Source: a virus
Lineage: Duplodnaviria > Heunggongvirae > Uroviricota > Caudoviricetes
Virus record (IMG/VR): IMGVR_UViG_3300045988_147305
DNA: 64,000 bases
Reading direction: 5' to 3' (one strand)
Part shown: piece by piece, positions 21,416 through 50,593 of the stretch
How positions within the stretch are numbered: position 1 is the first letter of the stretch
Layout: each line of letters begins with the position of its first letter
Notes under the pieces: generated by a model
The model's input: the letters and a program-made list of their open reading frames with translations, nothing else
What the model was told of the DNA's origin: nothing
The model's database searches: none
Translations under genes and position numbers: made by a program

Positions 21416-21416
21416 T

Positions 21417-22393: not shown

Positions 22394-22394
22394 T

Positions 22395-23525: not shown

Positions 23526-23573
23526 ATTATCAATTATGGTGCTATCACCTACGACACCGAGAGAAAATTTATA

Positions 23574-23696: not shown

Positions 23697-23703
23697 GGTA
23701 AGT

Positions 23704-23997: not shown

Positions 23998-24003
23998 ATT
24001 TAT

Positions 24004-25268: not shown

Positions 25269-25331
25269 ATTCCGGATAAAGCTGATATCTGATCACCATG
25301 CTAAAATCCCCTCAATTCACAGAGGGGATTT

Positions 25332-25604: not shown

Positions 25605-25606
25605 AC

Positions 25607-25855
25607 ATGAGCGACTGGAATATTGCAGCCAAAAGTCAGGAAGAACGGGATAAGGTTAACGTAGATCTGGCTGCCAGCGGTGTGGCGTACAAAGAGCGAT
25701 TGAACATACCAGTCATAGCGGAACAGGTGGCCAGGGAACAACCTGAGCACTTGCGTGCATGTTTCATGGAAAGACTACGTTATTACCGCGAGCAGAGCGT
25801 GAAACTACCAAAAGGAAGTGATCCGGTATATCAAAAGGCAGATCCACAAAAATAA
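25607..25855 (+). CDS. hot: homolog of DNA polymerase III theta subunit (HolE)
   Basis: [35 protein letters not shown] closely parallels E. coli HolE. Confidence 0.8.
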
Positions 25856-26431: not shown

Positions 26432-26653
26432 ATGCAATCCATTAACTTCCGTACCGCGCGTGGCAACCTTTCTGAAGTGCTCAACAATGTTGAAGCCGGG
26501 GAAGAGGTTGAAATCACCCGCAGAGGCCGTGAGCCAGCAGTAATTGTCAGCAAGGCTACTTTCGAAGCCTACAAAAAAGCGGCGCTGGATGCTGAATTTG
26601 CATCCCTGTTTGACACCCTGGACTCCACCAACAAGGAACTGGTTAACCGATAA
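26432..26653 (+). CDS. phd: Phd antitoxin (prevent host death)
   Basis: [40 protein letters not shown] matches P1 Phd as recalled; 73 aa from ATG 26432. Confidence 0.9.
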
Positions 26654-27033
26654 TGAGGCATATATCACCGGAAGAACTTATTGCGCTTCATGATGCGAAT
26701 ATAAGCCGCTACGGCGGCCTGCCGGGAATGTCTGATCCGGGTAGGGCAGAGGCCATTATCGGGAGAGTTCAGGCCAGAGTTGCCTACGAAGAGATCACCG
26801 ACCTTTTCGAAGTCTCCGCCACCTACCTGGTGGCTACAGCGAGAGGGCATATATTCAATGATGCCAATAAGCGTACCGCGCTAAACAGCGCGCTGCTATT
26901 TCTACGCCGTAACGGGGTGCAGGTATTTGATTCACCTGAACTGGCAGACCTTACTGTAGGGGCTGCGACTGGCGAGATATCTGTATCTTCTGTCGCCGAC
27001 ACGTTACGTAGATTGTATGGTTCTGCGGAGTAG
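26653..27033 (+). CDS. doc: Doc toxin (death on curing), Fic-fold kinase
   Basis: 126 aa; Fic-like motif [11 protein letters not shown]; ATGA-coupled to phd. Confidence 0.9.
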
Positions 27034-30109: not shown

Positions 30110-31593
30110 TGGCCAGAAGTTGCGTAACGGATCCACGTTGGCGCGAGCTGGTGGCGCTATATCGTTATGACTGGATTGCGGCCGCTGATGTTTTGTTCGG
30201 CAAAACACCTACCTGGCAGCAGGATCTGATTATTGAGTCTGTGCAGGAACAGGGTAGCAAGACATCTGTTTCGTCTGGTCACGGTACCGGGAAATCAGAC
30301 ATGACTTCTATCATGATCATGTTGTTCATAATCATGTATCCCGGTGCCCGCGCCATTATCGTTGCGAACAAAATTCAGCAGGTAATGACCGGTATATTCA
30401 AGTACATCAAGATAAACTGGGCTACTGCCACCAGCCGTTTCCCATGGCTTGCTGATTATTTTGTTCTGACAGAAACCGCTTTCTATGAGGTTACTGGTAA
30501 AGGTGTATGGACTGTAGTACCGAAGGGCTTTCGTCTGGGAAGTGAAGAAGCTCTCGCCGGTGAACACGCAGATCATCTTCTGTATATTATCGATGAAGCC
30601 TCCGGTGTCAGTGATAGAGCTTTCGGTATCATCACCGGTGCTCTTACCGGACAGGATAACCGCATCTTATTACTGTCACAGCCTACACGCCCAAGCGGCT
30701 ATTTCTACGATACTCATCATAAACTGGCCAAGCGTCCTGGTAACCCTGATGGCGTTTATACGGCGATCACGCTTAACAGTGAGGAATCACCGCTGGTAAC
30801 GCCAGCATTTATCAAAATGAAGCTGGCGGAGTACGGCGGGCGTGATAACCCTATGTACATGATTAAGGTACGCGGACTATTCCCTAAATCACAGGATGGC
30901 TTCCTTCTTGGACGTGATGAGGTTGAACGTGCGACGCGGCGGAAAGTCAAGATTGCCAAAGGATGGGGCTGGCTTGCATGTGTGGACGTTGCTGGTGGTA
31001 CGGGACGGGATAAGTCCGTTATCAATATCATGATGGTGTCCGGCCAGCGAAATAAACGCCGTGTAATCAACTATCGAATGCTGGAATACACAGACGTTAC
31101 AGAAACGCAGCTTGCCGCCAAAATTTTCGCAGAATGTAATCCTGAGCGATTCCCAAATATCACCATAGCGATAGACGGCGATGGCCTGGGTAAAGCAACG
31201 GCGGATCTGATGTACGAGTATTATGGTATTACCGTACAGCGTATACGCTGGGGTAAAAAGATGCATAGCCGTGAAGATAAGAGCCTGTACTTTGATAAAC
31301 GTGCTTATGCCAACGTTCAAGCCGCAGAGGCCGTAAAATCTGGTCGTATGAGACTGGATAAGGGTAATGAAACTATTGAGGAAGCGTCGAAAATCCCTGT
31401 AGGGATTAACTCCGCAGGTCAATGGAAGGTGATGAGTAAGGAGGATATGAAGAAAAAACTCAACCTGCACTCACCAGACCATTGGGATACATATTGTTTC
31501 GCTATGCTGGCGGATTATGTTCCCCAGGATGAAGTGCTTAGCATCGAAGACGAAGCGCAGGTTGATGAAGCCTTGGCATGGCTTAATGAATAA
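30109..31593 (+). CDS. pacB: terminase large subunit PacB
   Basis: 494 aa; Walker A SGHGTGKS, Walker [11 protein letters not shown]-terminal nuclease-like region. Confidence 0.8.
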
Positions 31594-31617
31594 CTCATTG
31601 ACCATGCCGGATAGAAA

Positions 31618-32469
31618 CTATTGCGCGCTTTCGGGGTTGTCGTTTACCGGCTGCCCCTTCTTAGTTTTACGGCTGCGCGTAACTGATGCGGCTGATTTGA
31701 CCTTTTTCTCTTCGCGAGTGATGGCAATTTGTTTTTTTACATTTTCAATATCTGCCAGGCGATATATTTTTGCCTGCGGCCAGCGGTCGCAGATGATCGG
31801 TTCTATAGAGTCATAAAGGCTAAATTTTGCTTTCTCGAATTCACCGTTGATGATGATTCCATCACGGAGAGTTTCATCGCAGATAAACACACCACACAGC
31901 GGCACATGGTAACTAACTGATTTACCATCATTGTAGTTAGGGCTACTGGAAATGTAGTGGACGCGCAGCATTGTTTCGCTAAAGCCGTGTACACGCATAC
32001 GGAATTTTTCATCCTCCGGGTACTGCTTCATTAGCTCTTTTGTTGCTTCCAGGTTCTCTATGTATTTCGCACTGTGCTCATTGATCCCCGCGCTTTTCTG
32101 GATGCGAATGTCCTTATCAATCAGATGAATAATGCGGCCAGCGGTCATGTTGACGCTGTTCACAGCTTCTGTCTGATAAGTTGTAACCTTACGCACACCG
32201 CGAAGGATGTTAGGCACTGGATATAAAATAGTCTTTGGGATATTGAGGTCTGGGTACTGTTCCAGTTCCCGCGCCATTAAAGTCCATTTATCAATTTCAG
32301 CCTGAATGCTGTCCGTTTCTTTGAACGGCAGAACGACAACCGGGCGAACAGGACGACCGTCGCTGGCGGCATCAACGTGTTGGGCGCGTGCAACAGCTTT
32401 TTTTAGAAAGAGATCCCTGAAGCTGACGAACTCCTGGTACAGTTGTTCGCCGTAGACATAATTTATCAT
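31618..32469 (-). CDS. c1: C1 immunity repressor
   Basis: 283 aa (P1 C1 length as recalled); between pacB and coi-loxP; operator-like sites cluster upstream. Confidence 0.75.
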   Translation of the reverse strand: MINYVYGEQLYQEFVSFRDLFLKKAVARAQHVDAASDGRPVRPVVVLPFKETDSIQAEIDKWTLMARELEQYPDLNIPKTILYPVPNILRGVRKVTTYQTEAVNSVNMTAGRIIHLIDKDIRIQKSAGINEHSAKYIENLEATKELMKQYPEDEKFRMRVHGFSETMLRVHYISSSPNYNDGKSVSYHVPLCGVFICDETLRDGIIINGEFEKAKFSLYDSIEPIICDRWPQAKIYRLADIENVKKQIAITREEKKVKSAASVTRSRKTKKGQPVNDNPESAQ

Positions 32470-33168: not shown

Positions 33169-33202
33169 TAATAACTTCGTATAGCATACATTATACGAAG
33201 TT
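33169..33202 (+). other. loxP site
   Basis: Exact ATAACTTCGTATA-GCATACAT-TATACGAAGTTAT. Confidence 0.98.
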
Positions 33203-33276
33203 ATCTTAAGGGTTATTGAACATGATCAATTTACCTGTAAATCCATACAGTTCAATACCTTATCAGGTCAAATAGT

Positions 33277-33296
33277 GATCACTTGATCATTTGATC
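33277..33296. promoter_or_regulatory. cluster of three Dam GATC sites between loxP and cre
   Basis: GTGATCACTTGATCATTTGATCAA; Dam regulation of a cre promoter in P1 is recalled. Confidence 0.5.
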
Positions 33297-33393
33297 AAGG
33301 TTGCGCTACGTAAAATCTGTGAAATGTTGGCAGTGTTAGTGCTCCAGATTTCGCGTAGCGCACTTAGCACCACCAATCAATCAGAGGTGAAAA

Positions 33394-33615
33394 ATGGGAT
33401 ATTCAGCTGCTAAAGTGTCCACTCATATTGAGCTTGAGAAAAACCGTGGTTACTGGCGGGCAAAAGGGTTTGATCGTGATAGTTGTCAACTGTCATTATC
33501 GCGCGGTGAAGAGAAAATAGAACGCACGCGCGGTCGCTGGCGTTTCTATGACGAGAACCATAAACAGGTAAAGGCAGAGCCGATCCTGTACACTTTACTT
33601 AAAACCATTATCTGA
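33394..33615 (+). CDS. small basic ORF (73 aa) between loxP and cre
   Basis: Good RBS GAGGTG; not a P1 gene I recall. Confidence 0.3.
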   Translation: MGYSAAKVSTHIELEKNRGYWRAKGFDRDSCQLSLSRGEEKIERTRGRWRFYDENHKQVKAEPILYTLLKTII

Positions 33616-33622
33616 GTGTTAA

Positions 33623-34654
33623 ATGTCCAATTTACTGACCGTACACCAAAATTTGCCTGCATTACCGGTCGATGCAACGAGTGATGAGGTTCGCAAGAAC
33701 CTGATGGACATGTTCAGGGATCGCCAGGCGTTTTCTGAGCATACCTGGAAAATGCTTCTGTCCGTTTGCCGATCGTGGGCGGCATGGTGCAAGTTGAATA
33801 ACCGGAAATGGTTTCCCGCAGAACCTGAAGATGTTCGCGATTATCTTCTATATCTTCAGGCGCGCGGTCTGGCAGTGAAAACTATCCAGCAACATTTGGG
33901 CCAGCTAAATATGCTTCATCGTCGGTCCGGGCTGCCACGACCAAGTGACAGCAATGCTGTTTCACTGGTCATGCGACGGATCCGAAAAGAAAACGTTGAT
34001 GCCGGTGAGCGTGCAAAACAGGCGCTGGCGTTCGAACGCACTGATTTCGACCAGGTTCGTTCACTCATGGAAAATAGCGATCGCTGCCAGGATATACGTA
34101 ATCTGGCATTTCTGGGGATTGCTTATAACACCCTGTTACGTATAGCCGAAATTTCTAGGATCAGAGTTAAAGATATCTCACGTACTGACGGTGGGAGAAT
34201 GTTAATCCATATTGGCAGAACGAAAACGCTGGTTAGCACCGCTGGTGTAGAGAAGGCACTTAGTCTGGGGGTAACTAAACTGGTTGAGCGATGGATTTCT
34301 GTCTCTGGTGTGGCTGATGATCCGAATAACTACTTGTTTTGCCGTGTCAGAAAAAATGGTGTTGCCGCGCCATCTGCCACCAGCCAGCTATCAACTCGCG
34401 CCCTGGAAGGGATTTTTGAAGCAACTCACCGATTGATTTACGGGGCTAAGGATGACTCTGGCCAGAGGTACCTGGCCTGGTCTGGACACAGTGCCCGTGT
34501 CGGAGCCGCGCGAGATATGGCCCGCGCCGGAGTTTCAATACCGGAGATCATGCAAGCTGGTGGCTGGACCAACGTAAATATTGTCATGAACTACATTCGT
34601 AACCTGGATAGTGAAACGGGGGCAATGGTGCGCCTGCTGGAAGATGGCGATTAG
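33623..34654 (+). CDS. cre: Cre tyrosine recombinase
   Basis: 343 aa beginning MSNLLTVHQNLPALPVDATSDEVRKNLMDMFRDRQAFSEHTWKMLLSVCRSWAAWCKLNN; catalytic region ...GHSARVGAARDMARAG...W.... Confidence 0.98.
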   Translation: MSNLLTVHQNLPALPVDATSDEVRKNLMDMFRDRQAFSEHTWKMLLSVCRSWAAWCKLNNRKWFPAEPEDVRDYLLYLQARGLAVKTIQQHLGQLNMLHRRSGLPRPSDSNAVSLVMRRIRKENVDAGERAKQALAFERTDFDQVRSLMENSDRCQDIRNLAFLGIAYNTLLRIAEISRIRVKDISRTDGGRMLIHIGRTKTLVSTAGVEKALSLGVTKLVERWISVSGVADDPNNYLFCRVRKNGVAAPSATSQLSTRALEGIFEATHRLIYGAKDDSGQRYLAWSGHSARVGAARDMARAGVSIPEIMQAGGWTNVNIVMNYIRNLDSETGAMVRLLEDGD

Positions 34655-34671
34655 CCGTTCATTTGCGCAAG

Positions 34672-34688
34672 ATTGCTCTAATTATTTG
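34672..34688 (+). promoter_or_regulatory. C1 operator downstream of cre (ATTGCTCTAATTATTTG)
   Basis: 14/17 match to consensus. Confidence 0.55.
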
Positions 34689-34704
34689 ATATTTATGGTG
34701 ACAC

Positions 34705-35016
34705 ATGCGGAAGGATTTCAAAATAGACGGAAAATATGTGGTGCTGTCTGTAAGCTCTCAAATTCAGTCACCATCTGTCATTGTCACCGTAAAGTTGAGC
34801 GATAGGATGCCTGATATCGACTCGATATCTGTTGCGTTCCCCGTTAAAAGCATGCGGAGTGCTGAACATTTTGTGATGAATGCAACGGAGGAGGAAGCGC
34901 GGCGCGGGCTTACTAGAGTGATGGCGGAATTTGGCGAACTCCTGGGTAAGGTAAACAATGCCCTTTCAATCAGTTCAGCAAGATCCAAAGCGTTAACAGC
35001 TTCCATGATGAAATAA
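34705..35016 (+). CDS. cra: cre-associated small protein, 103 aa
   Basis: Synteny; a bidirectional terminator hairpin follows at 35021-35041. Confidence 0.45.
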   Translation: MRKDFKIDGKYVVLSVSSQIQSPSVIVTVKLSDRMPDIDSISVAFPVKSMRSAEHFVMNATEEEARRGLTRVMAEFGELLGKVNNALSISSARSKALTASMMK

Positions 35017-35147
35017 AAAAAGCCTGGCAAGGAGCCAGGCTGCACAAAAGAGCGGGTTTGTATTCCGCATCCAATCAATCAAGAAGGAGTATAGCACACA
35101 GGTACTGAAGTGAAAAAATGTGATTCGCGATTAACAAAATATCTACC

Positions 35148-35177
35148 ATTGCTCTAATTGATTGCTATAATTAAGCC
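35148..35177 (+). promoter_or_regulatory. tandem overlapping C1 operators upstream of ref
   Basis: ATTGCTCTAATTGATTG and ATTGCTATAATTAAGCC. Confidence 0.6.
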
Positions 35178-35263
35178 GCAGTTTTTGTCAACTACGAAGA
35201 CGTTGCCATTACTTAACTCCTTGACATCATTGGCGGCCATTAGGCCGCCTTTTTTTTTGCCAT

Positions 35264-35824
35264 ATGAAAACAATCGAACAAAAACTTGAACAGCGCCGCG
35301 AGTGGCAGAAGGCAGCCAGAGAACGAGCGATCGCTCGGCAACGGGAAAAGTTGGCTGACCCCGCCTGGCGAGAATCGCAATATCAGAAAATGCGGGATTC
35401 TATCGACCGCCGTATCGCTAAACAGAAAGAGCGCCCACCAGCCAGCAAAACGCGGAAAAGTGCGGTAAAGATAAAATCTCGTGGCTTGAAGGGGCGAACA
35501 TCGACAGCGGAGGAACGGAGCATCGCCAATGCTCTTGGCGCTCTCCCCTGCATTGCCTGCTACATGCATGGAGTAATATCTGAAGAGGTATCTCTGCACC
35601 ATATCTCCGGTCGTACCGCGCCGGGTTGTCACAAAAAGCAATTGCCCCTTTGTAGATGGCACCACCAGCATGCAGCACCGGCTGAAGTAAGAGAAAAATA
35701 CCCCTGGCTGGTCCCTGTTCATGCCGATGGTGTGGTTGGAGGCAAGAAAGAATTCACCTTGCTGAACAAGTCAGAGATGGAGTTGCTGGCTGACGCCTAT
35801 GAGATGGCAAACATCATGCACTAA
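35264..35824 (+). CDS. ref: Ref HNH endonuclease (recombination enhancement function)
   Basis: 186 aa; basic N-terminus; HNH region CIACYMHGVISEEVSLHHISGR...CRWHHQH. Confidence 0.8.
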   Translation: MKTIEQKLEQRREWQKAARERAIARQREKLADPAWRESQYQKMRDSIDRRIAKQKERPPASKTRKSAVKIKSRGLKGRTSTAEERSIANALGALPCIACYMHGVISEEVSLHHISGRTAPGCHKKQLPLCRWHHQHAAPAEVREKYPWLVPVHADGVVGGKKEFTLLNKSEMELLADAYEMANIMH

Positions 35825-36013
35825 TAAATATATTATTTTTAACCTGAAATAATTGACAACTGACAAGTGACTTCAGTCAGAATCATCACATGCCCGGTAC
35901 GGATGGATCCCTTTTCAAATATTCCATGGACGGCACAGTCTGAGTACCGGGCGCTACCTTCAGTTGTATTGCTAAGCCGCCGCTGGTGGCTTTTCTTTTT
36001 TGTAGGGGGCGCT

Positions 36014-36655
36014 ATGGATAAGAAAATATGCGTTGTTTCGATGAGCGTCGGCAAACCGGCGTCAATGACTGCCGCATGGATCAACAATGAGCTAATAATG
36101 GCTGAGCGGACCAGCTACCCTGAACGCCGCCGCGATATGGAACTCCAGCTGCTGCGCGAATTGCGAGAAAAAGAGGAAAAGGGTTTTATCGTGCTGGTGG
36201 AAGAGGAAAACAGCTTTATTACTGGTCGAGTTGGCCAGCGTGTAAGGTTGCGCGATCCCTTCATGAACGGCAGGCCGGTACTGATTGAAGCAATGCAGAT
36301 TTACAAGGAGCTGGAACGCCAGAAAGCGATCAAGTTACCGCGCAAGGAATCCGGCAAATACATCCTCCACCAAAGCATCTTCGATTCCGAACACGATAAA
36401 AAAGGCGATGAATTTTTCAACATCAACTGGAGTGAAATAACGACAGAGCATGTTCTGACGTTACTATGTTGCTTTGCGACGGAATACAACAACGTTGCCA
36501 GCGCCGACTACATCAGGGCAATGGCTGGAGAAGTTGAGGCCCGCCAGGAACCATCGTTACTAAGCCCTCTGATTAACATAATTCGCGGAACCCAAACACT
36601 GGCGCAAAAACAAGTACCACGAGGGGAATTGACGGGTAAAGGTAATTATCTCTGA
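36014..36655 (+). CDS. mat: Mat-like protein (particle maturation), ~213 aa
   Basis: Synteny after ref; ATG 36014 with RBS AGGGGG, in frame within track ORF 35867..36655. Confidence 0.5.
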   Translation: MDKKICVVSMSVGKPASMTAAWINNELIMAERTSYPERRRDMELQLLRELREKEEKGFIVLVEEENSFITGRVGQRVRLRDPFMNGRPVLIEAMQIYKELERQKAIKLPRKESGKYILHQSIFDSEHDKKGDEFFNINWSEITTEHVLTLLCCFATEYNNVASADYIRAMAGEVEARQEPSLLSPLINIIRGTQTLAQKQVPRGELTGKGNYL

Positions 36656-36694
36656 AAGATGCCCGGCGACAGACCGGGCAAAAGGGCGGAAAGT

Positions 36695-36943
36695 TTAATC
36701 AGCATTCAGGAGCAATGCGTTATCTATGATGATCTGCTCCCATTCTTCGAATGCCCGATCGCGGACGCCCTGGGGAACACTGTTAGTTTTGAAATCGACG
36801 ACCGTACGCCATTTCCCGTCCGGACGGTACATGCGCAGAGCTTTACTTCCCCCTTCCCTGCGCACCTCAACGTTATGCTTGTCAGCAAACTCTTGTAATG
36901 CTCGTAGCGTCCCATGCTTTACTGTGTAGTATCGCTTTTTCAA
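36695..36943 (-). CDS. lxc: Lxc-like protein, 82 aa
   Basis: Synteny upstream of ulx-darB on the minus strand. Confidence 0.5.
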   Translation of the reverse strand: MKKRYYTVKHGTLRALQEFADKHNVEVRREGGSKALRMYRPDGKWRTVVDFKTNSVPQGVRDRAFEEWEQIIIDNALLLNAD

Positions 36944-37380
36944 GTTTTCTCTCCAGCCTGTGCCAAGGCTTCAACTTCCAAATCGTAAGACTCAAACTCA
37001 TAGTCCTGGTCGTCAACTTCTTCAGGCACTGGCAGTAAATGCCAGGCTGAGTATATCTGACCATTATCAAAACGCTCCTGGCTGTAGAGCGTCGCGGCTA
37101 TGAGTGTTAGCGCCGGGCGGTCATAACGGTAAATTTTGCGAACGTCACGGTCAACGAGACGACCGAAATTACCATAACCGCGCTCCAGTAATAATTTTTT
37201 AATTTCCGGCCAGTATGGACCATAGCTGCGGTACAGGCGGGGATTTTTCAGTAATCGCCTGCGTAGCCCTGACAGGAAGAAATCAACGTATTCGTCTTCT
37301 GTCTTTCCTAACAACGCTGTACGGAGTACCGCCTCAAGATATGTTTTATTCGGTTTTATTGTATCAGATAGTGTGGCCAT
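36940..37380 (-). CDS. ulx: Ulx-like protein, 146 aa (Dar antirestriction operon)
   Basis: Coupled between darB and lxc. Confidence 0.5.
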   Translation of the reverse strand: MATLSDTIKPNKTYLEAVLRTALLGKTEDEYVDFFLSGLRRRLLKNPRLYRSYGPYWPEIKKLLLERGYGNFGRLVDRDVRKIYRYDRPALTLIAATLYSQERFDNGQIYSAWHLLPVPEEVDDQDYEFESYDLEVEALAQAGEKT

Positions 37381-37413
37381 ATTATGCGACGCCCGGCGAA
37401 CCGGGCGCTCCTG

Positions 37414-40400
37414 TTATGCGTATTGTTGGATGACGGCCAGAACGTCCGCCACGTTGTGTTTTGTCTCGATAATCCACCAGTTACCCGGGAAATCGCTGTT
37501 CTTCGCCTTCGCTGGCAGCCAGCGAGCGCCGAATTTCGCCTTGATTGCGTCTTTCGCACGGAAAAGAACGCCTTTCATGCCTGAGGCTTCCTGAAGCCCA
37601 AATACCTCGCCAGCGGCGAATTTTGGTGCGTACATCATCTTCAGGTCGGCGGTGGATACGCGATAATTCAGACCAAGAGACTGAGCTATGCTGGTGGCAT
37701 CACCCTGTATTGATGATAACTCTTCTTGTTTCTCGTTTCTGGCGGCAATCTCTTCCTCCGTGATGTTGCCAAGGGCCAGGTTTATCCGATCAGCGTCGGC
37801 CTGTTTCTCTTCATCGGTGCGCCCGGCAAGAACCGTGTTAATTCTCTGCAATATCTCCACATGATTCTTGCGCATGCTGAGCAATTCCGGCGTAACCTCG
37901 TTAAGATCCACCATCCCAAGGATGGCAAGGTCGGAAAACATTGATACCAGGTTGTAGGTCATGCGATAGCTGAGTTGACCATAGGCTGATGGCAACTTCA
38001 CCGCATCCATTTGATAGGCATCCATAAATTTAGAGCCGTCGTTTACGACATCCGCTATTGCAGGTGTGATTTTCCCTGTGGTGGCGGCCTCCCTGATTGC
38101 TGTTACCCACGATTGAGTCAGCGCGGCGACTGCATGATTCAGATTGGCTTCCCGTTCTGCTGCGATGCGCGCGCTTGCTGCGTCCATTGCCTGCTTGATC
38201 TCGGCTTTATTGCTGTAAATGCCAATGGTGCCAAACTGTGCTGTGGTGATCTCATAATCTGACGCCCGGAACTCATGGGTACCGAAAATAGCATTGGTGA
38301 CTTCAAGTTCAGAATCCCCGTTACGAGTAGCCCCCTGGCTTGTTTTTTCCGGCATTCTGGCGATCGCATCCGCTATTTTCTCCTGAATTGCTTCAGGGGA
38401 TAGCGTATCTCCGTATGACGCGATTACATCGCCATAATTGGAGCCAAACAATTCAACCAGGAATGTTTCTGCCGAACGGATCTGGCGGTTATTCCCTTCC
38501 GACATCATACCAAGCACCCATTTTGCAATTGACGACTTCAGCGCGCCGTCACGGCGATCCGGGTAAACCGCATGCTTCAGTGGGGCCGTATAAGAACCAA
38601 CAAAATCAATGCTATAGCCTGACTCTGTAGTCTGAACGCCGTATGAGTCAGTGATTTTGATCATACCGCGCTGCTGGAAACGGTAGAAATCGTCACAGGA
38701 AATGATGTCGTTAATCCCGGCGATGGAGACGCCACCACTGATTTTCTGCATAACAGCATCTTCATCGGGAGTTACATCAACCTGTTTATCCAGCGTCTTC
38801 ACATCCCAGTTACCCGATTTGGTGCCTTTGAAGGTAAAGATGATCTCCACGTCTGCGCGCTGGCTGTCGAAGTCCAGCGACTTAATGCGAACGATATCAC
38901 CGGCACAATCATAGTATTGGCCTACACGCCATGAGCGATCGCCGATAACAAGGAACTCATTCGCATGGTTAACCAGATCAGGATCAACATCCAGAATGCC
39001 TTTATTTATTGCATCCTCCACCAGCGGGCGCAGGCGTTTGATATCCGTCGCGGCCTTCTGAGTACGGTTCAATAATTTCTCATAGCGGGAGATGGCCTGA
39101 GAGATATTAGCCTTGCGCTGAATGGCGCTTTTCAACGACGCGCGATACTGTGCTAACAACATACGGTCTGTGTGATGGACGCTACCCCAGCGGGCTTTCC
39201 AGTCTGCGTTATCCGCTGCTTTGGCCATTACCGCCTGTTTGAATTTGGCGACGTCGGCGGTGGTCTTTTCAAGTTCCGCTTTGCTTCGCTCCAATTCAGC
39301 GGTAAGTACCTCCACATCCTCACCAGCTGCGTGCTGCGCCTTGATGTAGTTCTGAAGGTCGATAGTAGCCTGTTCTTTCTGGCGAGCGCGTTTCGCAGCT
39401 TTCGCCTTATCCATTTGAACCTGCATCATTGCCAGACGTTCGCCGTCATCCTTCGCGGTATACATCTGCATTTCGATCATGTCATTGGCGTCGGCGTTCT
39501 CCATTTCTGACTTATCTGAACGGAGGATATCGGAGATCCAGCCTGCTTTACGCTTCAGCGTCTTCAGTCGGTATTCATCGAAAGACCCCTTGCCGCAGTA
39601 GTAGTGAACGCGAACGCTTGCACGGTTGGAGCCAACTCGTGCACCGCGACCGTTACGTTGTGCGATACTGGCTGGTGTCCACGGCAACGTCAGGTGGTGG
39701 ATATCCGTCGTTCCTCGATGCAGGTTGATACCCACCTCTGCCTTTTTGTTGCAGATGATGATCGGAGTCCGGCCCTCCTGGAAGTCGGCTGCAATCTTTT
39801 CCAGACCGCCCAACGACATTTCATTTTGCTGCGCGATATAGGCGTCATACAGAGCCATTTGCTCGTTGTATTTCGCTATCTGTGCATCTGTTGGTTCATC
39901 CGGTAGCTCTTTCGGCGGTTTAACCGCTTTCAGTTTCTTACCGGTTTTACCTGCCTCGGCAACCGTCTGAGCATTCAGGATCCCCACCTTTGAAGGTTCA
40001 AGGTTAAGAGCATTGCAGATAATGCGCTTGAGCTTCTGGTGTTGCGTTTTTTCATCGGTGAAGATGATTTGCTTACCTTCCGGGAAAAACTCCTTCAGCG
40101 TGGCAATCAGCTTCGCGTATTTGGGCGTAACGGGGTGAGTTACGGTCTGTTCGTCAATGCCAAACCTGGCCAGGCGCTTATTCACTTCCTGCTCGAACGC
40201 TTCCGGAACCTGCAACTGAATAAACTCGCCCTTATCTATCAGGGAGTATTGCGATTGCTGCGTGATTGAATCATCACTGTCGTCGTCTTCGCTGGTGGCT
40301 TGTTTAGGCAAACTGTCCGCCAGCTGCTGCACCGCATCGGCGTACTCCGGCAGGAAACGATAGGTGATCCGGCGATAGTACAGGTCCATGTCAGTACATA

Positions 40401-43400
40401 CGCGGTCCATATCCCTGATTATTGAGAAGATCGGACGGGCTTTCTCGTGCTCAATCACGCCGTCTTCATTGACCGAGGTCGTTACGCCATTGTTGGCTTT
40501 GGCTGCCGCTTCCGCCTGCTGACGCAATTCTTCATACGCCGCCAGTTGTTCTTCCGTAAGTGGTGCATCCTGCTGGTGTTCGTCCAGTTCCGGGATCTCC
40601 ACGGTATCCTTAACGTCTTCCGCCGTTTTAAGCGTTGTCCAGCGATGGAATATGCCGCGCAGCGCATCAAGGTTTTCAAAGCCCACCAGCGCCATTTTTT
40701 CTTCAACTTCACCGCTGATTTTCTGTACCGTTTCCAGCCTGGTCTTGCCGAAGAATTTAACGAAGTCATCAGGACCGTAGATCCCCATCTTCTGCCAGTA
40801 TTCTTTCGGCAGAACATGAGAAAGCATGTTGTATGCATCGATCGGGGTGTTAACGACTGGCGTTGCAGTCAGGAGAACCGGTCCGCGCCCGCCATTCTTT
40901 TTCATCAGGTACGCGTTTTTGATTGCCATATCTCGCGCCGATTGCGCCACCGCGCTGGTGGGCAGATAGGCCAGCTGTGACGCTTCGCGACCATTTTTAT
41001 AGCTATTGCGGTAGTTGTGGCCTTCGTCGGCGATCACGCTGTCGAAGCCCATATCCTCAAAGTACGGATACTTCTCTGCTTTTTCGGTACCGGTATCTGA
41101 ATACTCCGACAATACCCGGCGACGCGCCGCCTCTTTGCGATGGGAATCGGAATCCATTGCGCCGGCCACACGTCCGGCAGCAACGAAGTCATAAAGCATG
41201 TCTTGTGCATGCTCATCTACGGTGTCATCACGTAGCGGAATGCGGGCGTATTGTTCTTTGGTAAACACGACTGCACGGTAATTTGAGTGCGGGATCGCAT
41301 TCATCCGCGCCGTGATAGTGGCTTCATCTGCCAGCTTAAGAGCATCACGCATAACTGGAGTGCCATCAGTACCAAGAACAGGTTTACCGTTCTCATCGAG
41401 CACCGGCACCTGGCGAATCTGATCGCCATCCATCAGCACATCAAGACCGACGAACAAATAGTTACTGAATGCCTCTTCACTCAGGAATTCTTTAGCTTCG
41501 TAATACCAATTTTCCAGCACTGATTTAGGCACTACATACGCAGTACGGGTGGAGCGACCGTTCTCATAGTTGAACGCCTCAAGCGCCAGCGCGGTCGTAG
41601 TTTTACCCAGCCCAGTGCCGAAGCCCAGGATGCCGCGCCCATCTTCGGACAGTCGGCGCACTTCGCTATTCTGGTAATCAAATGGCTGGCGCTTACCGCT
41701 TAATCCCTTCAACCCAAGCGGATCGCCAGAGTGTTCATACGGGATATTGCTATTGAACACATCGTTGTATTTGGCAACCAGTTCATCGTAGCGATCGTGC
41801 GTCTTGATCCACTTATTGAACTGGTCCTCAAGCAGTGCCATCTGCTCGCGGTAGCCGTTCGCCGTCGCGCTATCTTTGCCACCGATACGCGCACCATTGA
41901 GATACTTTTCCAGCTGTGCCGGGAACCCGGTCGCGTTTTCACCTGATTTACGATCCCACTCGTAGCGGATCTCGCCTGTTTCTTTATCCTTGCGCTGGAC
42001 GACACCGTATCGGTGCCCGACGAACAGACCATCACCACCGTGATAGGTGTCAGAAACCATTTCGTCGCCTTCCAGCTGCACTGACTGCACATAGCGAAGA
42101 TCCGGATAGCCGTTTTCCTGCAAAAATTCCAGAATGACGGAACGGTCGAACCAACGGCTATTGAGCTTAAAGCGGATATTCTCTGCTGGCGTCTTGATGC
42201 GCTTCTCTTCGATCGCTGCCAGCTGATTAAGGACGTTGTTCTTTACTGGACCGTCGGGGAGTGTGGCAAGGAATTCCTGTTTTGGTGCCACTATCTCGTT
42301 AATGTCGCCGCTGGTGGCGCGGGCGAACGGAACAATCCCGCCATACGGTGAAACCGCAATGCCAGGGGTGCTGGCCAATAAATTAAGCAACTCGTCATCA
42401 CTGGCTGGCAGTTCGCCGGTAAACGCAAGGCGGAAATCATCGAGCTGGATTGGATCGCGAGTGAGATCACTGTAGAGATAACGCAGGGTGTCCTGATAGC
42501 TGGTGGAGTCATAACTGGCGCTGGAATCATGCGTAACCAGTTTTCCTGTCAGCTCGTCAGAAATAGTGCCATCCAGCTTAATTGCACCACGGAAAGCAAA
42601 CCAGGCGCGCGCACCGCTCCCCGATAATTTCGCTATCGGACCGCGACCGGGGTTACCAAAACGGTCAATCTCTGCCTGCAAACGGGATACCAGAGAAAGG
42701 CGCTGCTGTTCGATTTGTTCAGCACTATGCCCGGCGGCCTTCATGTCCTGATATTCAATTAACATCCGGCCAATCATCGCCCCGCGATACAAGCGTTCAC
42801 GGTATTTTTCAGGCTGGCTGTTAATCCAGTCCACCAGCTGCACCATATCGTCGCTGATTGATGTGGTGTACTTATCGCGGACATTTGCCATCTGGGTAAA
42901 TGTCATACCGAGACGGCCTTCTGTTGTAGTCAGGTTACGCTGAAGAGCCTCCCAGCTGTCCGCGCCATAACTGGCAACATCAATCTTCAGCTCCTTCCCT
43001 GCATCAGATTCAATCCAGCGACCACCAGCATATTTTTGCCATACGCCATTAATCAGGCGCATTTCCCCTTCATCAACAACGTCTGCGGTCGGTGACGGTT
43101 CAGCCATATTGAGCAAAGACCAGTCGATACGACTTTCGAAACGATGAATCAGCTTCGCTTTAAGAGCCTGGTTATCAATCTGCCCGTCGGCACGAACCTC
43201 AATACGCCCCTGGAATCCCTTCTCCTGGGTGCCATGAACAAACCGGCGACCGTCCTTTTCAAACCACTTGCCAGAAATAAACGTTGGCCAAAGCACATTT
43301 GCCGATTCAAGAGTGCCTTCATCCACCAGGGGGATTTTCTCAGCCATCTCCGCCGGATGTTTGCGCATCAGCACCACGTCAACGACCGTACTGGTCCCGT

Positions 43401-44181
43401 TTGCGTCAAAAGTACCGGTAGGCAAGCGGTGGGCACCAAGAAATTCAGCTTTCCGTGATAGGCGCAGGCGTAACCGCTTCATGTTTGAACCTGAAACAAT
43501 GGACGGCGGCACAATCACGCACATGAATCCGCCTGGCTTTATCTTGTCCAGCATGCGGAGCATGAAGTAAGAACCCATGTCCGTTTCTTCTGCGTAAGGC
43601 TTATCGATGTTGCGTGTGTTATCACGACCACCGAACGGAACGTTACCCACAACATGGTCGAATGAATCGTTAGGCGTGCTTACAGCCAGCTGTTCGAACG
43701 GGGAAATCTGTACGCTGTCTTCCGGGTGTAACAGCTGGTTTATACGACCGGAAACACTGCTGATCTCAGTCGCAGTCATCACCGTACCAACCGGTTTTGT
43801 CTCATTAAAAACGCCGGTGCCCGCCGATGGTTCCAGAGTGTTACCTACGTCCGCGCCGTAGAGCTTCATGATCTCCCAGACACCTTCAGCGATCGGCTTT
43901 GGTGTGTAATATTCGGAGACGGACCCGCCAATGCCGCCTTCACCGGTGTACCCAGCCAGGATCTGGCGCTGTTCATCTGTCAGTGTCGCGCCGTCCACCA
44001 GCGAATTAAGCAAATCTATCGCCTTCTGATTCGCCTCCCGGCGCAGTCGGTCATAGCTTTTGCCTTCCACCTTTTCCACGCCGTATTTAATCGGCGCTCG
44101 GTGAGATGTTATTGCCCTAATGTATTTCAATATTTCGCTGACACTTGAACAGCGAAACACCCCCATAGATAGCTTGTTCAT
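37414..44181 (-). CDS. darB: DarB antirestriction protein (2255 aa) with N6-adenine MTase and SF2 helicase domains
   Basis: MTase motif EPSAGTGVF...GNVPFGG; helicase Walker A GFGTGLGKTT and motif II VIADEGHNYRN; length equals P1 DarB as recalled. Confidence 0.85.
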   Translation of the reverse strand: MNKLSMGVFRCSSVSEILKYIRAITSHRAPIKYGVEKVEGKSYDRLRREANQKAIDLLNSLVDGATLTDEQRQILAGYTGEGGIGGSVSEYYTPKPIAEGVWEIMKLYGADVGNTLEPSAGTGVFNETKPVGTVMTATEISSVSGRINQLLHPEDSVQISPFEQLAVSTPNDSFDHVVGNVPFGGRDNTRNIDKPYAEETDMGSYFMLRMLDKIKPGGFMCVIVPPSIVSGSNMKRLRLRLSRKAEFLGAHRLPTGTFDANGTSTVVDVVLMRKHPAEMAEKIPLVDEGTLESANVLWPTFISGKWFEKDGRRFVHGTQEKGFQGRIEVRADGQIDNQALKAKLIHRFESRIDWSLLNMAEPSPTADVVDEGEMRLINGVWQKYAGGRWIESDAGKELKIDVASYGADSWEALQRNLTTTEGRLGMTFTQMANVRDKYTTSISDDMVQLVDWINSQPEKYRERLYRGAMIGRMLIEYQDMKAAGHSAEQIEQQRLSLVSRLQAEIDRFGNPGRGPIAKLSGSGARAWFAFRGAIKLDGTISDELTGKLVTHDSSASYDSTSYQDTLRYLYSDLTRDPIQLDDFRLAFTGELPASDDELLNLLASTPGIAVSPYGGIVPFARATSGDINEIVAPKQEFLATLPDGPVKNNVLNQLAAIEEKRIKTPAENIRFKLNSRWFDRSVILEFLQENGYPDLRYVQSVQLEGDEMVSDTYHGGDGLFVGHRYGVVQRKDKETGEIRYEWDRKSGENATGFPAQLEKYLNGARIGGKDSATANGYREQMALLEDQFNKWIKTHDRYDELVAKYNDVFNSNIPYEHSGDPLGLKGLSGKRQPFDYQNSEVRRLSEDGRGILGFGTGLGKTTTALALEAFNYENGRSTRTAYVVPKSVLENWYYEAKEFLSEEAFSNYLFVGLDVLMDGDQIRQVPVLDENGKPVLGTDGTPVMRDALKLADEATITARMNAIPHSNYRAVVFTKEQYARIPLRDDTVDEHAQDMLYDFVAAGRVAGAMDSDSHRKEAARRRVLSEYSDTGTEKAEKYPYFEDMGFDSVIADEGHNYRNSYKNGREASQLAYLPTSAVAQSARDMAIKNAYLMKKNGGRGPVLLTATPVVNTPIDAYNMLSHVLPKEYWQKMGIYGPDDFVKFFGKTRLETVQKISGEVEEKMALVGFENLDALRGIFHRWTTLKTAEDVKDTVEIPELDEHQQDAPLTEEQLAAYEELRQQAEAAAKANNGVTTSVNEDGVIEHEKARPIFSIIRDMDRVCTDMDLYYRRITYRFLPEYADAVQQLADSLPKQATSEDDDSDDSITQQSQYSLIDKGEFIQLQVPEAFEQEVNKRLARFGIDEQTVTHPVTPKYAKLIATLKEFFPEGKQIIFTDEKTQHQKLKRIICNALNLEPSKVGILNAQTVAEAGKTGKKLKAVKPPKELPDEPTDAQIAKYNEQMALYDAYIAQQNEMSLGGLEKIAADFQEGRTPIIICNKKAEVGINLHRGTTDIHHLTLPWTPASIAQRNGRGARVGSNRASVRVHYYCGKGSFDEYRLKTLKRKAGWISDILRSDKSEMENADANDMIEMQMYTAKDDGERLAMMQVQMDKAKAAKRARQKEQATIDLQNYIKAQHAAGEDVEVLTAELERSKAELEKTTADVAKFKQAVMAKAADNADWKARWGSVHHTDRMLLAQYRASLKSAIQRKANISQAISRYEKLLNRTQKAATDIKRLRPLVEDAINKGILDVDPDLVNHANEFLVIGDRSWRVGQYYDCAGDIVRIKSLDFDSQRADVEIIFTFKGTKSGNWDVKTLDKQVDVTPDEDAVMQKISGGVSIAGINDIISCDDFYRFQQRGMIKITDSYGVQTTESGYSIDFVGSYTAPLKHAVYPDRRDGALKSSIAKWVLGMMSEGNNRQIRSAETFLVELFGSNYGDVIASYGDTLSPEAIQEKIADAIARMPEKTSQGATRNGDSELEVTNAIFGTHEFRASDYEITTAQFGTIGIYSNKAEIKQAMDAASARIAAEREANLNHAVAALTQSWVTAIREAATTGKITPAIADVVNDGSKFMDAYQMDAVKLPSAYGQLSYRMTYNLVSMFSDLAILGMVDLNEVTPELLSMRKNHVEILQRINTVLAGRTDEEKQADADRINLALGNITEEEIAARNEKQEELSSIQGDATSIAQSLGLNYRVSTADLKMMYAPKFAAGEVFGLQEASGMKGVLFRAKDAIKAKFGARWLPAKAKNSDFPGNWWIIETKHNVADVLAVIQQYA

Positions 44182-44247
44182 TGGTAATCCTTAACAAGTG
44201 ACTAGTGTTAAATTCCGTTCAAACACGATGTGAATTATTCTAATTAA

Positions 44248-46978
<2,731 letters not shown>

Positions 46979-46983
46979 CCATC

Positions 46984-47010
46984 AAAAATAACCCCGGCGG
47001 CTGCCGGGGT
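46984..47010. terminator. bidirectional terminator between convergent pro and lyz operons
   Basis: Perfect 9-bp stem AACCCCGGC-ggct-GCCGGGGTT; T-run on the minus-strand side. Confidence 0.6.
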
Positions 47011-47022
47011 TCTCGTTAACTA

Positions 47023-47277
47023 TTATCGCCTTCGTCTGCGTGCCATATATTTTCGCACCGCGCGACGTGGGCAATCTGAAGCGGTTTCTTTCTGCTGCAT
47101 CAATCTTGCAGCCATGCTCAAAAATGTCAGGCACAGCCGAAGCCCGGCATATAATAGCGGTTCCAGTGGCCACGTCTCATTGAGCACATATACCGCCATG
47201 AAAATCGAGTCAAAAACTATCGCCGCCAGCGATAACTTCATTGTCGAAAGTCGGCGGAGCTGCCGGAGTTTATTCAT
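47023..47277 (-). CDS. small membrane protein (84 aa) downstream of lyz
   Basis: Two hydrophobic segments; basic C-terminus; lies between lyz and the terminator. Confidence 0.4.
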   Translation of the reverse strand: MNKLRQLRRLSTMKLSLAAIVFDSIFMAVYVLNETWPLEPLLYAGLRLCLTFLSMAARLMQQKETASDCPRRAVRKYMARRRRR

Positions 47278-47827
47278 TGACCAGTCCCGTCAGGCAAAGC
47301 TGGCGTTCTTTTTCACGGCGAATCTTTAAACCTCGCAGGGGCACGCCGTTACTGTTCACGAAATCAGGGAGATGGTTACACATATTCACCCATTCCCCTT
47401 TCTGCGCCCACTTGTGGATGGACGTTTCTACTCGCATGCCTCGCGCTTTGCTGTAGTAGGTCCGTAAACTATTGCATCCCATATTGAATGCCGCGCTTGT
47501 CATTGCGCTAAAGGCATTATCGGGCATGTCTTTGCCCCGGAAGTGCTGGTTAATACAGCGTTCAGCGATCAGGATATTCTTTTCCCAATCAGCGGCGATT
47601 TGCTGGTCGGTTTTTCGCACGCCCGGCGTTACCCCGTGTGTATTACCAATCCCGTCAGTCCATACACCCGCCGGGCACATGTATGGGTCACGTCGGCAAC
47701 CTTCAGCGTTTCCGATAAGCTCAAGCCCCGCCTGGTTGGTTCGCACATTGCCATTACCCATCACGATGGTAATCATCACCGCGATAGCGCAAATTGCACC
47801 GCCTCCTGCGGCTGTTTTTCCCTTCAT
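47270..47827 (-). CDS. lyz: SAR endolysin (T4-type lysozyme with N-terminal signal-anchor-release domain)
   Basis: 185 aa; Gly/Ala-rich weakly hydrophobic N-terminus then lysozyme core (E...D...T). Confidence 0.85.
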   Translation of the reverse strand: MKGKTAAGGGAICAIAVMITIVMGNGNVRTNQAGLELIGNAEGCRRDPYMCPAGVWTDGIGNTHGVTPGVRKTDQQIAADWEKNILIAERCINQHFRGKDMPDNAFSAMTSAAFNMGCNSLRTYYSKARGMRVETSIHKWAQKGEWVNMCNHLPDFVNSNGVPLRGLKIRREKERQLCLTGLVNE

Positions 47828-47959
47828 AAAGACCTCATAAGCGAATTTTTACGCTCCAGGACAAACACCCATTCACAGCCAATACCGACTGACTCGATCC
47901 CTTTAGAAGACACAGGATAATGCAAATCACTTGTTAGCTACGTTTCAAAGATATACATT

Positions 47960-47976
47960 ATTGCTCTAATTAATTT
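47960..47976 (+). promoter_or_regulatory. C1 operator upstream of ssb (ATTGCTCTAATTAATTT)
   Basis: 16/17 match to consensus. Confidence 0.65.
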
Positions 47977-47995
47977 ATTTTATTAGGTAAGATAA

Positions 47996-48484
47996 GTGGC
48001 ACAACGCGGTGTAAACAAAGTCATCCTGATTGGTACCCTGGGGCAAGACCCGGAGATCAGGTATATACCAAATGGCGGCGCGGTCGGAAGACTCAGCATC
48101 GCAACGAATGAATCATGGCGCGACAAGCAAACGGGCCAACAGAAAGAGCAAACAGAATGGCATAAAGTCGTTTTGTTCGGAAAACTTGCTGAAATTGCGA
48201 GTGAGTATTTACGAAAAGGTTCTCAGGTCTACATCGAAGGGAAACTTAAAACCCGTAAGTGGACAGATGACGCCGGTGTAGAACGTTACACGACGGAAAT
48301 TATCGTCAGCCAGGGCGGCACCATGCAAATGATCGGCGCTCGCCGCGACGATTCACAGTCCTCAAATGGCTGGGGGCAGTCAAACCAACCTCAAAACCAC
48401 CAGCAATACAGCGGTGGTGGCAAACCTCAGAGCAGCGCCAATAACGAACCTCCAATGGACTTTGAAGACGATATTCCGTTTTAG
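47996..48484 (+). CDS. ssb: single-stranded DNA-binding protein
   Basis: OB-fold N-terminus, Gly/Gln-rich linker, acidic tail DFEDDIPF. Confidence 0.92.
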
Positions 48485-48566
48485 AGTTTATGAGTAAAAA
48501 ACGACTGAAAGAAAAGCGGTGGTCCAAACGCCAACAAAAGCACGAACTCGCTAAAAAACGCCAAAG

Positions 48567-49475
48567 TTGGCAATGGAACGCGTTTTTAACGAACAGAACA
48601 CCCCGAGATATTGCTTTCGCTGGTGGGAAAACATTCCTGACCCACCTGAAGGCGCAATACATCAGTTTTTAAGCAGAGAAAAGACTATGGCAGCACAAAA
48701 TACTAAAACAATTCAATACCGCCTGCGTAATGGCCAGAGTGTCGAAGTGACCATCAATAATGATGGTGTACCTGGCGAAAAGGTTTCTATCTCCGATCTG
48801 GCTATCGAAAAAACCATCATGTGCCACCTTGGCTTTACTGAAGAAGTGAGCAAAAAGCATGGTGTAGCAATCTGGAGCGCAATGGATACTGGTATGCGCA
48901 GATTCATTACTGCTCGTACTCCAGGGATGACCATGATGGACCTCATGCAGATTGCGCCGCTGTTTGAATGTGAGCCTTTAGATGTATTCAGCAATCCAGC
49001 TATCTGCCAGCAGCTATATGGTGAGATGAAACTCGCGGTTACCCCCATTGTGCTGCATGAAGGATCGCTTGCTGGCGTGTGGAAAGTGGAGCGTATTTCA
49101 AGCTACATGCCTTTCCATGTCAACGGCGTAATCACTGGTGAAAATCAACCTGTTTCCGTTATAAAGTCAGACCTCAAGCGCGCAATTCTTGAAGCAAGTT
49201 GTCGAGTTGTCGGCCTGGGCAAACAGTCTTATGTTTCCTTCCCGGCTGGCCCTGAAGGCCCGGCAGAAATTCTGATTATGGATGCCGATCTGCTATGGCA
49301 AATACAGTTTCTGATTGGCAAAAGCATCATCCGCGCTGAAGAACTCGATCAGTACATTACCTGCACGATGACGGATGAAGTCAAAAGTGTGGCTATAGCC
49401 AATGCCCGGAACCTATGTCGTGCTGCATTAACAGAACTGCAAGAAAACACCACGGAAGAGGTGGAAAGTGATTAA
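48567..49475 (+). CDS. hypothetical protein (P1 isaA position), 302 aa; true start may be ATG ~48687
   Basis: Synteny only. Confidence 0.45.
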   Translation: MAMERVFNEQNTPRYCFRWWENIPDPPEGAIHQFLSREKTMAAQNTKTIQYRLRNGQSVEVTINNDGVPGEKVSISDLAIEKTIMCHLGFTEEVSKKHGVAIWSAMDTGMRRFITARTPGMTMMDLMQIAPLFECEPLDVFSNPAICQQLYGEMKLAVTPIVLHEGSLAGVWKVERISSYMPFHVNGVITGENQPVSVIKSDLKRAILEASCRVVGLGKQSYVSFPAGPEGPAEILIMDADLLWQIQFLIGKSIIRAEELDQYITCTMTDEVKSVAIANARNLCRAALTELQENTTEEVESD

Positions 49476-50562: not shown

Positions 50563-50593
50563 GGTAAAAATCCCGCCGATTGGCGGGATTTCT

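Follow-up and report, generated by a model that had tools for sequence, protein, structure and literature searches.

The mat-lxc locus and its counterpart in P1

The stretch of DNA analysed here (the window, 64 kb; a further ~30 kb of the same replicon falls outside it) is colinear with phage P1, with blastn blocks at 95–98% identity and protein identities of 94.6–100%. The order of the P1 genes is kept on both sides of the locus under study, as lox-cre-c8-ref-mat on the left, with an exact loxP at 33171–33204, and as lxc-ulx-darB on the right (Table 1). The assignments of mat, lxc and ulx made in the initial annotation were right, as judged by the identities of their products to those of P1. 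That annotation also gave correctly the end of mat and the short gap before lxc, but not that lxc starts there: mat and lxc are convergent, and it is therefore the 3' end of lxc that adjoins mat. The 213-aa form of mat follows the annotation of phage RCS47; the longest open reading frame begins with a GTG at 35867. A 79-aa open reading frame at 36659–36898 on the plus strand, antisense to lxc, was judged to be spurious, because the sequence is ~95% identical to that of P1, where the same Lxc is encoded and no such gene is annotated.

In P1 (NC_005856) mat (2716–3468) is followed by res (3544–6456, minus strand), an IS5-interrupted mod, and lxc (9750–9998, minus strand), and P7 likewise has the order mat-res-mod-lxc; the P1 order given in the initial annotation is therefore right. 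The region P1 3469–9749 (res-mod) has been named RD-1 and termed a hot-spot (Venturini 2019, PMC6906374), and elsewhere res-mod is counted as variable region 1 of P1-like plasmids (PMC9603915). The published locus is bounded by mat and lxc, as in the window.

Table 1. Features of the window at and around the mat-lxc junction, and the Dar genes
Feature	Position	Strand	Remarks
mat (maturation control)	36014–36655	+	95.8% aa identity to P1 Mat
window-specific part of RD-1 ('empty allele' haplotype)	36585–36694		divergent mat 3' end and spacer
spacer between convergent mat and lxc stops	36656–36694		39 nt, non-coding, read directly
GC-rich hairpin	36660–36680		core GCCCGG-CGACAGA-CCGGGC; candidate bidirectional stop for transcription of mat and lxc
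lxc (modulator of C1 repressor)	36695–36943	-	100% aa identity to P1 Lxc
ulx (Ulx-like protein)	36940–37380	-	97.9% aa identity to P1 Ulx
darB (methyltransferase-helicase, defence against restriction)	37414–44181	-	99.1% aa identity to P1 DarB
ddrB	50892–53879		in 96.6% block matching P1 24246–31836
ddrA	53892–54257		in 96.6% block matching P1 24246–31836
darA	54254–56173		in 96.6% block matching P1 24246–31836
hdf	56175–56786		in 96.6% block matching P1 24246–31836

The mat-lxc interval of the P1 reference, which houses res and mod of the type III system, spans 6.28 kb, or 5.08 kb without the IS5. Comparison by blastn aligned window positions 33188–36610 with P1 1–3423, and 36688–49476 with P1 9743–22532. 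Only 77 nt (36611–36687) were left unmatched to P1, and roughly 6.3 kb of P1 are therefore missing from the window. This agrees with the initial proposal that no res or mod gene lies between mat and lxc, and tblastn searches of the 64-kb window with P1 Res (best E 0.19) and with IS5-repaired P1 Mod (best E 1.1) likewise gave no match; on these searches a move of res-mod to another place within the window was rejected. The window has in common with the EcoP1I-type (type III) res-mod cassette of P1 and P7 its flanking genes and colinear backbone, but Res and Mod are wholly missing, and the mat 3' end represents another allele, with 64–84% identity to P1 in the 50-nt bins from 36560 and 36585 between flanks at 90–100%. 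Downstream of lxc, P1 has the mod promoters, where the window has a hairpin.

Restriction and antirestriction genes in the window

When the 68 open reading frames of the window were submitted to PADLOC, all 34 families matched were traced to the Dmt fragment, DarB (which matches both MTase and SNF2-helicase families), the Ban helicase and Doc, and there was no REase family among these matches. The Dmt fragment and DarB are the only methyltransferases in the window. The segments without counterpart in P1 (3010–4097, 18357–24916 and 49477–50595) gave no PADLOC matches and contain SPFH, Ead/Ea22 or DUF551 domains or have no Pfam match, and the presence of another defence system in them was rejected on both counts. 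No restriction endonuclease is annotated in pXJW9B263-2, the closest of the complete relatives. The view that the element has no resident restriction-modification (R-M) system is supported for the 64-kb window, within which neither res/mod nor any complete defence system was detected by tblastn and PADLOC. The Dar antirestriction operon is retained, as had been suggested, with all of hdf, darA, ddrA, ddrB and darB found. The accompanying suggestion that the Dmt methylase is also kept holds for its C-terminal 411 aa (42–1277), the rest lying beyond the edge of the window, which cuts the gene.

A lysogen of such an element would be expected to gain no EcoP1I-type restriction from the prophage, and the phage DNA would carry no EcoP1I modification. 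Addiction would depend on Phd/Doc and not on an R-M module, while antirestriction at the time of infection, through the Dar proteins and Dmt, would be kept. As a P1-like phage-plasmid of the RCS47 type without EcoP1I, the element should not be assumed to have the restriction phenotype of P1. The significance for the window itself is small, and mainly a matter of annotation.

The empty junction and its distribution

The 39-nt spacer is the same in phage RCS47, and is present with one substitution in pE6474.2. Its hairpin has a minimum free energy of -17.4 kcal/mol on the plus strand and -16.0 kcal/mol on the minus strand, with z-scores of -2.2 and -2.5, respectively, against shuffled sequence. 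Only a weak U-tract follows on the lxc strand (AUCUUUC), and none on the mat strand; a scan for consensus terminators made no call at 36660–36680, and an Rfam scan returned three tRNAs only, with no match at the junction. By inference, this single structure most likely stops both convergent transcripts.

The junction is 100% identical in RCS47 and in pXJW9B263-2. Escherichia phage RCS47 (NC_042128 / FO818745) aligns in one piece with window positions 34000–40000 at 98.7%, and in it mat ends at 3467 and lxc occupies 3507–3755, with the same 139 nt between the flank anchors as in the window; it is a separate isolate of 115 kb that differs from the window outside the junction region. The empty junction was found in 31 of the 691 PLSDB plasmids that have the flanks (about 5%), and in 35 of the 691 complete E. 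coli genomes with them. Its hosts are E. coli, E. fergusonii and Salmonella, and identity over the 111-nt junction is 96.4–100%. Of complete E. coli genomes, about 13% contain P1-like elements. One divergent Salmonella relative, considered as an outgroup for the polarity of the change, differs in gene order, with no mat or lxc annotated in the stretch examined, and did not serve as one. An assembly artefact, in which res-mod was collapsed or lost, has no specific support and is extremely improbable, given that RCS47, 31 complete and independent plasmids and 35 complete genomes of E. coli all have the junction at 96–100% identity.

P1-type res-mod accounts for 48 PLSDB records at at least 99% identity, and both it and the empty state are in the minority among RD-1 alleles. 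In the passages on RD-1 in PMC6906374, PMC9603915 and PMC10865808 (Fig. 5), res-mod is missing or replaced, and content varies between conserved flanks. The cases described there are replacements of res-mod by other ORFs, whereas the window is fully empty; neither the 39-nt empty junction nor its frequency of about 5% is explicitly described in those passages. The same junction is present in RCS47 and in about 5% of P1-like plasmids, and the site is published; the finding is therefore correct but ordinary. The idea that the junction is a hotspot for exchange of cargo is likewise right, the same flanks enclosing differing cargo across P1-like plasmids, but the variability of RD-1 was already known.

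Probable exchange of alleles at RD-1

The RD-1 slot of P1-like elements is highly polymorphic. Among the seven alleles compared, divergence runs from the mat 3' end to the lxc stop and no further, between flanks that are 94–100% identical. Identity across alleles decays inside mat from about 36510–36585, and the mat 3' end differs from allele to allele, its last 50–150 nt being allele-specific. Identity returns to 92–100% exactly at the lxc stop codon, which forms a sharp right boundary of RD-1. Every cargo allele examined has its own distinct hairpin adjoining that stop. A tract of seven SNPs within mat (36451–36499) is common only to P1, which carries res-mod, and pE6474.2, which is empty, and this indicates gene conversion within mat.

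It is very probable that the window carries a cargo-free (null) allele of RD-1, and that such alleles are swapped whole by homologous recombination, with no recent deletion involved. The near-identical flanks and the mosaic SNP tract in mat both argue for allele replacement of this kind, the recombination being read from mosaic patterns in seven sequences. On this proposal the empty, res-mod, SIR2, RelA/SpoT, PIN and other alleles would be exchanged as entire haplotypes through the cre-ref-mat flank on the left and the lxc-ulx-darB flank on the right, and neither transposition nor site-specific integration would take part. In the empty haplotype, the one hairpin in the spacer would serve to end both transcripts.

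That a P1- or P7-type ancestor has instead recently lost res-mod, for instance through illegitimate recombination or following IS5 activity, is unlikely. Both of those phages do have res-mod at this site, the mod of the P1 reference holds an IS5, and the bases just before the lxc stop are alike (GAAAGTTTAAT in the window and GGAAGTTTAAT in P1). Such a loss, however, sits poorly with the low identity of the mat 3' end to P1 between well-conserved flanks, with a spacer hairpin that P1 does not have, with the absence from the window of any remnant of res, mod or IS5 (blastn, tblastn), and with the minority status of P1-type res-mod itself. In addition, the empty haplotype is widespread and internally diversified. 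In PLSDB its 111-nt segment (36590–36700) turned up only whole, in the 31 plasmids, and never beside cargo; a search for remnants of the empty-allele spacer beside cargo, as a test of recent deletion, found none, the partial matches (80–85%) being confined to the 3' end of the mat coding sequence. The empty allele has a mat 3' end and a hairpin of its own and lacks both cargo remnants and flanking repeats; on its sequence it is best read as a discrete, stable circulating haplotype and not as a fresh deletion of P1 res-mod.

A different route to the same arrangement would be site-specific capture, with RD-1 as an integron- or att-like site in which the hairpin beside lxc would be the place of recombination, and the empty allele an acceptor without a cassette. 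An imperfect palindrome does lie directly beside the lxc stop in every allele examined, the right boundary is sharp to a few bases, and the tyrosine recombinase gene cre is only 2 kb upstream. The hairpins, however, have no common sequence and no conserved core; selection on lxc would also account for the sharp edge at its stop codon; and the left boundary is graded within coding sequence, as homologous exchange predicts. There are neither direct repeats nor target duplications at the cassette borders among the alleles compared, and no lox-like site in the window besides that at 33171–33204. Capture of this kind is accordingly very unlikely, and a transposon or site-specific origin for the cassettes was rejected for want of border repeats and of a lox-like site at the junction.

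Besides SIR2, RelA/SpoT (relAP1), PIN and res-mod, the RD-1 content of other P1-like plasmids includes an icd/KilAC/HTH/DUF3944 (icd/antirepressor) module between the same flanks, and DUF2971, YaaC and EAL genes are annotated there in sampled plasmids. The SIR2 cargo matches PDC-S25 and is ThsA-like, the RelA/SpoT cargo matches PDC-S33, and the PIN cargo is PDC-S34-like. Much of the cargo examined thus matches candidate single-gene defence families, so that RD-1 is a sensible locus in which to search for new defence genes. Prophages of the P2/P4 type and their satellites carry defence-gene hotspots, in which there is likewise a fixed slot with conserved neighbours and interchangeable, mostly single-gene, candidate defence cargo; they belong to another family of elements, and the RD-1 of the window is without cargo. 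A stronger version, that RD-1 is a dedicated slot for single-gene anti-phage cassettes with dozens of alleles, that the empty allele is a 'no-defence' state kept stably or an acceptor site, and that the hairpins take part in capture, is decidedly unlikely; if it were true, the cassette-proximal hairpins would do more than terminate transcription. In an experimental study of relAP1, this gene was assayed solely for its influence on the fitness cost imposed by a beta-lactamase. The SIR2 and RelA/SpoT cassettes were found on plasmids of differing replicon typings.

Gene order at the mat-lxc junction

As judged from its sequence, the window is a P1-like phage-plasmid. The proteins encoded around the mat-lxc junction (Cre, Ref, Mat, Lxc, Ulx and DarB; see Table) share 94.6-100% identity with those of P1, and the mat, lxc and ulx assignments of the initial annotation are therefore right. 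An exact 34-bp loxP lies at 33171-33204. The P1 gene order given in that annotation, mat-res-mod-lxc, is also correct: in NC_005856 mat (2716-3468) is followed by res (3544-6456, minus strand), by mod, which is broken up by IS5 at 7652-8846, and by lxc (9750-9998, minus strand), and P7 has the same order. Blastn of the entire window against the full P1 genome gave colinear blocks, and between the two that flank the junction only 77 nt (36611-36687) were unmatched. Where P1 has 6.28 kb from the mat stop codon to that of lxc, the window thus has 39 non-coding nt (36656-36694). Neither P1 Res (best E 0.19) nor IS5-repaired P1 Mod (best E 1.1) had a tblastn match in the 64-kb window, and no remnant of res, mod or IS5 was found at its junction. 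The absence of res-mod is confirmed by the alignment gap and these searches. The statement that lxc starts 40 bp after mat does not hold: the genes are convergent, so across the 39-nt spacer mat faces the 3' end of lxc.

Table. Features of the window and of RD-1 in other P1-like plasmids (L005, L006, L007, L014)
Feature	Coordinates	Strand	Remarks
cre	33623-34654	+	ORF; Cre 99.7% protein identity to P1
c8-like gene	34705-35016	+	ORF
ref	35264-35824	+	ORF; Ref 94.6% protein identity to P1
mat	36014-36655	+	ORF; longest form from GTG 35867; Mat 95.8% protein identity to P1
lxc	36695-36943	-	ORF; Lxc 100% protein identity to P1
ulx	36940-37380	-	ORF; Ulx 97.9% protein identity to P1
darB	37414-44181	-	ORF; DarB 99.1% protein identity to P1
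Colinear blastn block	33188-36610		P1 1-3423
Colinear blastn block	36688-49476		P1 9743-22532
Segments without P1 match	3010-4097, 18357-24916, 25264-25611, 49477-50595, 58176 onward		blastn
SIR2-like gene, 434 aa	L005 3712-5016		between same mat-lxc flanks
RelA/SpoT-domain genes, 373-376 aa	L006 3768-4889		between same flanks; published relAP1 type
PIN-domain gene, 316 aa	L007 3698-4648		between same flanks
3.5-kb module: hypothetical, Icd-like, KilAC antirepressor, HTH, DUF3944 genes	L014 7190-10648		same flanks
P1-type res-mod			between same flanks in other P1-like plasmids

The lxc stop comes directly after the spacer, whose sequence is AAGAT-GCCCGG-CGACAGA-CCGGGC-AAAAGGGCGGAAAGT. Its hairpin (36660-36680; -17.4 kcal/mol on the plus strand and -16.0 on the minus strand, with z-scores against shuffles of -2.2 and -2.5) lacks a U-tract on the mat strand, has only a weak one on the lxc strand, and was not called by a consensus terminator scan; it is a putative terminator that would probably act in both directions on the convergent genes. 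In P1 the mod promoters follow lxc, whereas in the window lxc is followed by the hairpin, at which its transcription would most likely end.

Cargo and allele frequencies of RD-1

The mat-lxc interval is variable region 1 (RD-1) of P1-like plasmids, and its variability is already published: Venturini et al. 2019 describe RD-1 (P1 3,469-9,749, res-mod) as one of five hot-spots, with res-mod absent from all three of their plasmids (PMC6906374), and in a survey covering 54 P1-like phage-plasmids res-mod is given as highly variable region 1 (PMC9603915). The feature is thus known and ordinary for the family. Phage RCS47, a reference genome, has an empty junction identical to that of the window, in one aligned piece (98.7% over 6 kb; mat end 3467, lxc 3507-3755). 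The suggestion that the junction is a cargo-exchange hotspot is supported by the SIR2, RelA/SpoT, PIN, icd-module or res-mod genes found between the same flanks. In PADLOC the SIR2 protein lies nearest to PDC-S25 and ThsA-type SIR2 models, the RelA/SpoT protein belongs to PDC-S33 (7e-87), and the PIN protein has a weak match to PDC-S34; for the most part, the cargo examined is therefore candidate single-gene defence. DUF2971, YaaC-family and EAL-domain genes were listed anywhere within the matched span in a spread sample of 60 of the 718 PLSDB records with a match.

Frequencies of the empty junction were obtained with a 301-nt junction query against PLSDB and complete RefSeq E. coli genomes. 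In PLSDB a flank was matched in 691 plasmids, 31 of which (4.5%) matched across the junction; P1-type res-mod was present in 48 records at ≥99% identity, the SIR2 cassette in 65 at ≥80% coverage with a further 57 carrying a divergent SIR2, and one RelA/SpoT allele in 21 at ≥80% coverage. The P1-like mat/lxc flank occurred in 691 of 5,426 E. coli genomes (12.7%), and the empty junction in 35 of those 691 (5.1%); 20 of 1,034 matching places were chromosomal, not plasmid-borne. RD-1 is highly polymorphic, and res-mod, its textbook state, is a minority allele, as is the empty state. Allele frequencies, the empty junction's haplotype structure and the mosaic evidence for homologous exchange were not found in those parts of the RD-1 literature that were examined, and are increments on the known picture.

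Origin and exchange of RD-1 alleles

The last ~60-150 nt of mat differ from one RD-1 allele to the next (the window's Mat ends ...RGTQTLAQKQVPRGELTGKGNYL, against ...RGTQRLAEKSVPHGILTGKGNYF in P1, although the proteins stay similar), and each allele has a separate, unrelated hairpin directly adjoining the lxc stop. A junction-specific 111-nt segment (36590-36700) was only ever found whole: 31 plasmids, from E. coli, E. fergusonii and Salmonella, carry it at 96.4-100% identity, and one more copy is cut by a record end. It was never found adjoining cargo, partial matches (80-85%) being the mat coding 3' end of SIR2 alleles. A fresh deletion of the P1 cassette is rejected on these grounds together with the lack of any res, mod or IS5 remnant, and the evidence argues that the empty RD-1 is a discrete circulating haplotype. 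In a divergent Salmonella relative the gene order differs, which provides no outgroup for deciding between an ancestral empty allele and an old clean deletion. In several plasmids that otherwise have the empty allele, pE6474.2 (TnpB at L008 13012-14142) and its relatives, an IS200/IS605-type TnpB gene has inserted between prt (portal) and pro.

In a comparison of seven elements that represent five different states of RD-1, flank identity was 94-100%. Within the mat 3' end it declines gradually, beginning at about 36510-36585 according to the allele, and precisely at the lxc stop it is back at 92-100%. A 7-SNP tract in mat (36451-36499), common only to pE6474.2 (empty) and P1 (res-mod), resembles a gene-conversion mosaic patch, and plasmids carrying the SIR2 and RelA/SpoT cassettes have different replicon typings. 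There is no support for transposition or site-specific capture: neither direct repeats nor target duplications were found on either side of the cassettes, and a lox scan of the window (≤3 mismatches) returned only the genuine loxP. Homologous recombination in the conserved flanks, by which one whole allele replaces another, is the best-supported mechanism, and selection keeping lxc intact would suffice to explain the sharp right boundary.

Defence content of the visible replicon

PADLOC analysis of 68 non-overlapping ORFs spanning the window returned 34 families, all traced to four genes: the C-terminal Dmt fragment (42-1277; 24 orphan or type II methyltransferase families), DarB (8), the Ban helicase (mad8) and the Doc ORF (26653-27033; PDC-M59B). 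No restriction endonuclease or complete defence system was detected in these 64 kb, some 30 kb of the replicon lying beyond. Together with the tblastn results, this upholds the view that the visible part lacks an R-M system. The Dar genes are retained as proposed, in a 96.6%-identity block matching P1 24246-31836, and Dmt is seen as its C-terminal fragment. The prophage would accordingly confer no EcoP1I-type restriction on its host, its DNA would not be EcoP1I-modified, and any addiction effect added by an R-M module would be missing while phd/doc is kept; infection-time counter-defence by the Dar proteins and Dmt would be preserved.

Some main ORFs of the segments without P1 match have SPFH, Ead/Ea22 or DUF551 domains and the others have none in Pfam; no PADLOC match was obtained for any of them. 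The 6.5-kb stretch at 18357-24916, in place of the P1 pmgT-to-upfO region, has among its ORFs two for Ead/Ea22-like proteins, at 19400-20131 and 20128-20880, and one for a DUF551 protein, at 22601-23209; all its ORFs are PADLOC-negative. An SPFH/Band-7 protein gene (3252-4079, plus strand; Pfam 9.7e-31) occupies the position of P1 tciA/tciB/tciC, and a 364-aa ORF (49468-50562, plus strand) without Pfam or PADLOC match replaces the IS1/isaB region, the published RD-2. The tail-fibre/invertible-segment region (58176-64000) is divergent, most of 58880-64000 having no P1 match and the cin-like recombinase ORF (58307-58888) only ~70% DNA identity. Three tRNA genes (1953-2025, 2031-2103, 4107-4179) are as in P1.

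The closest complete plasmid, pXJW9B263-2 (NZ_CP067401.1), is ~98-99% identical to the window over the main blocks (55 kb aligned in all, 92-99% per block) and 100% identical at the junction; its annotation lists no restriction enzyme, and includes the SPFH/Band-7 gene. It carries an extra ~1.7 kb between c1 and pacB (L010 6140-7866), with a KilAC antirepressor fragment, Icd-like and Ash-family content, that is absent from the window at ~31591-31619.
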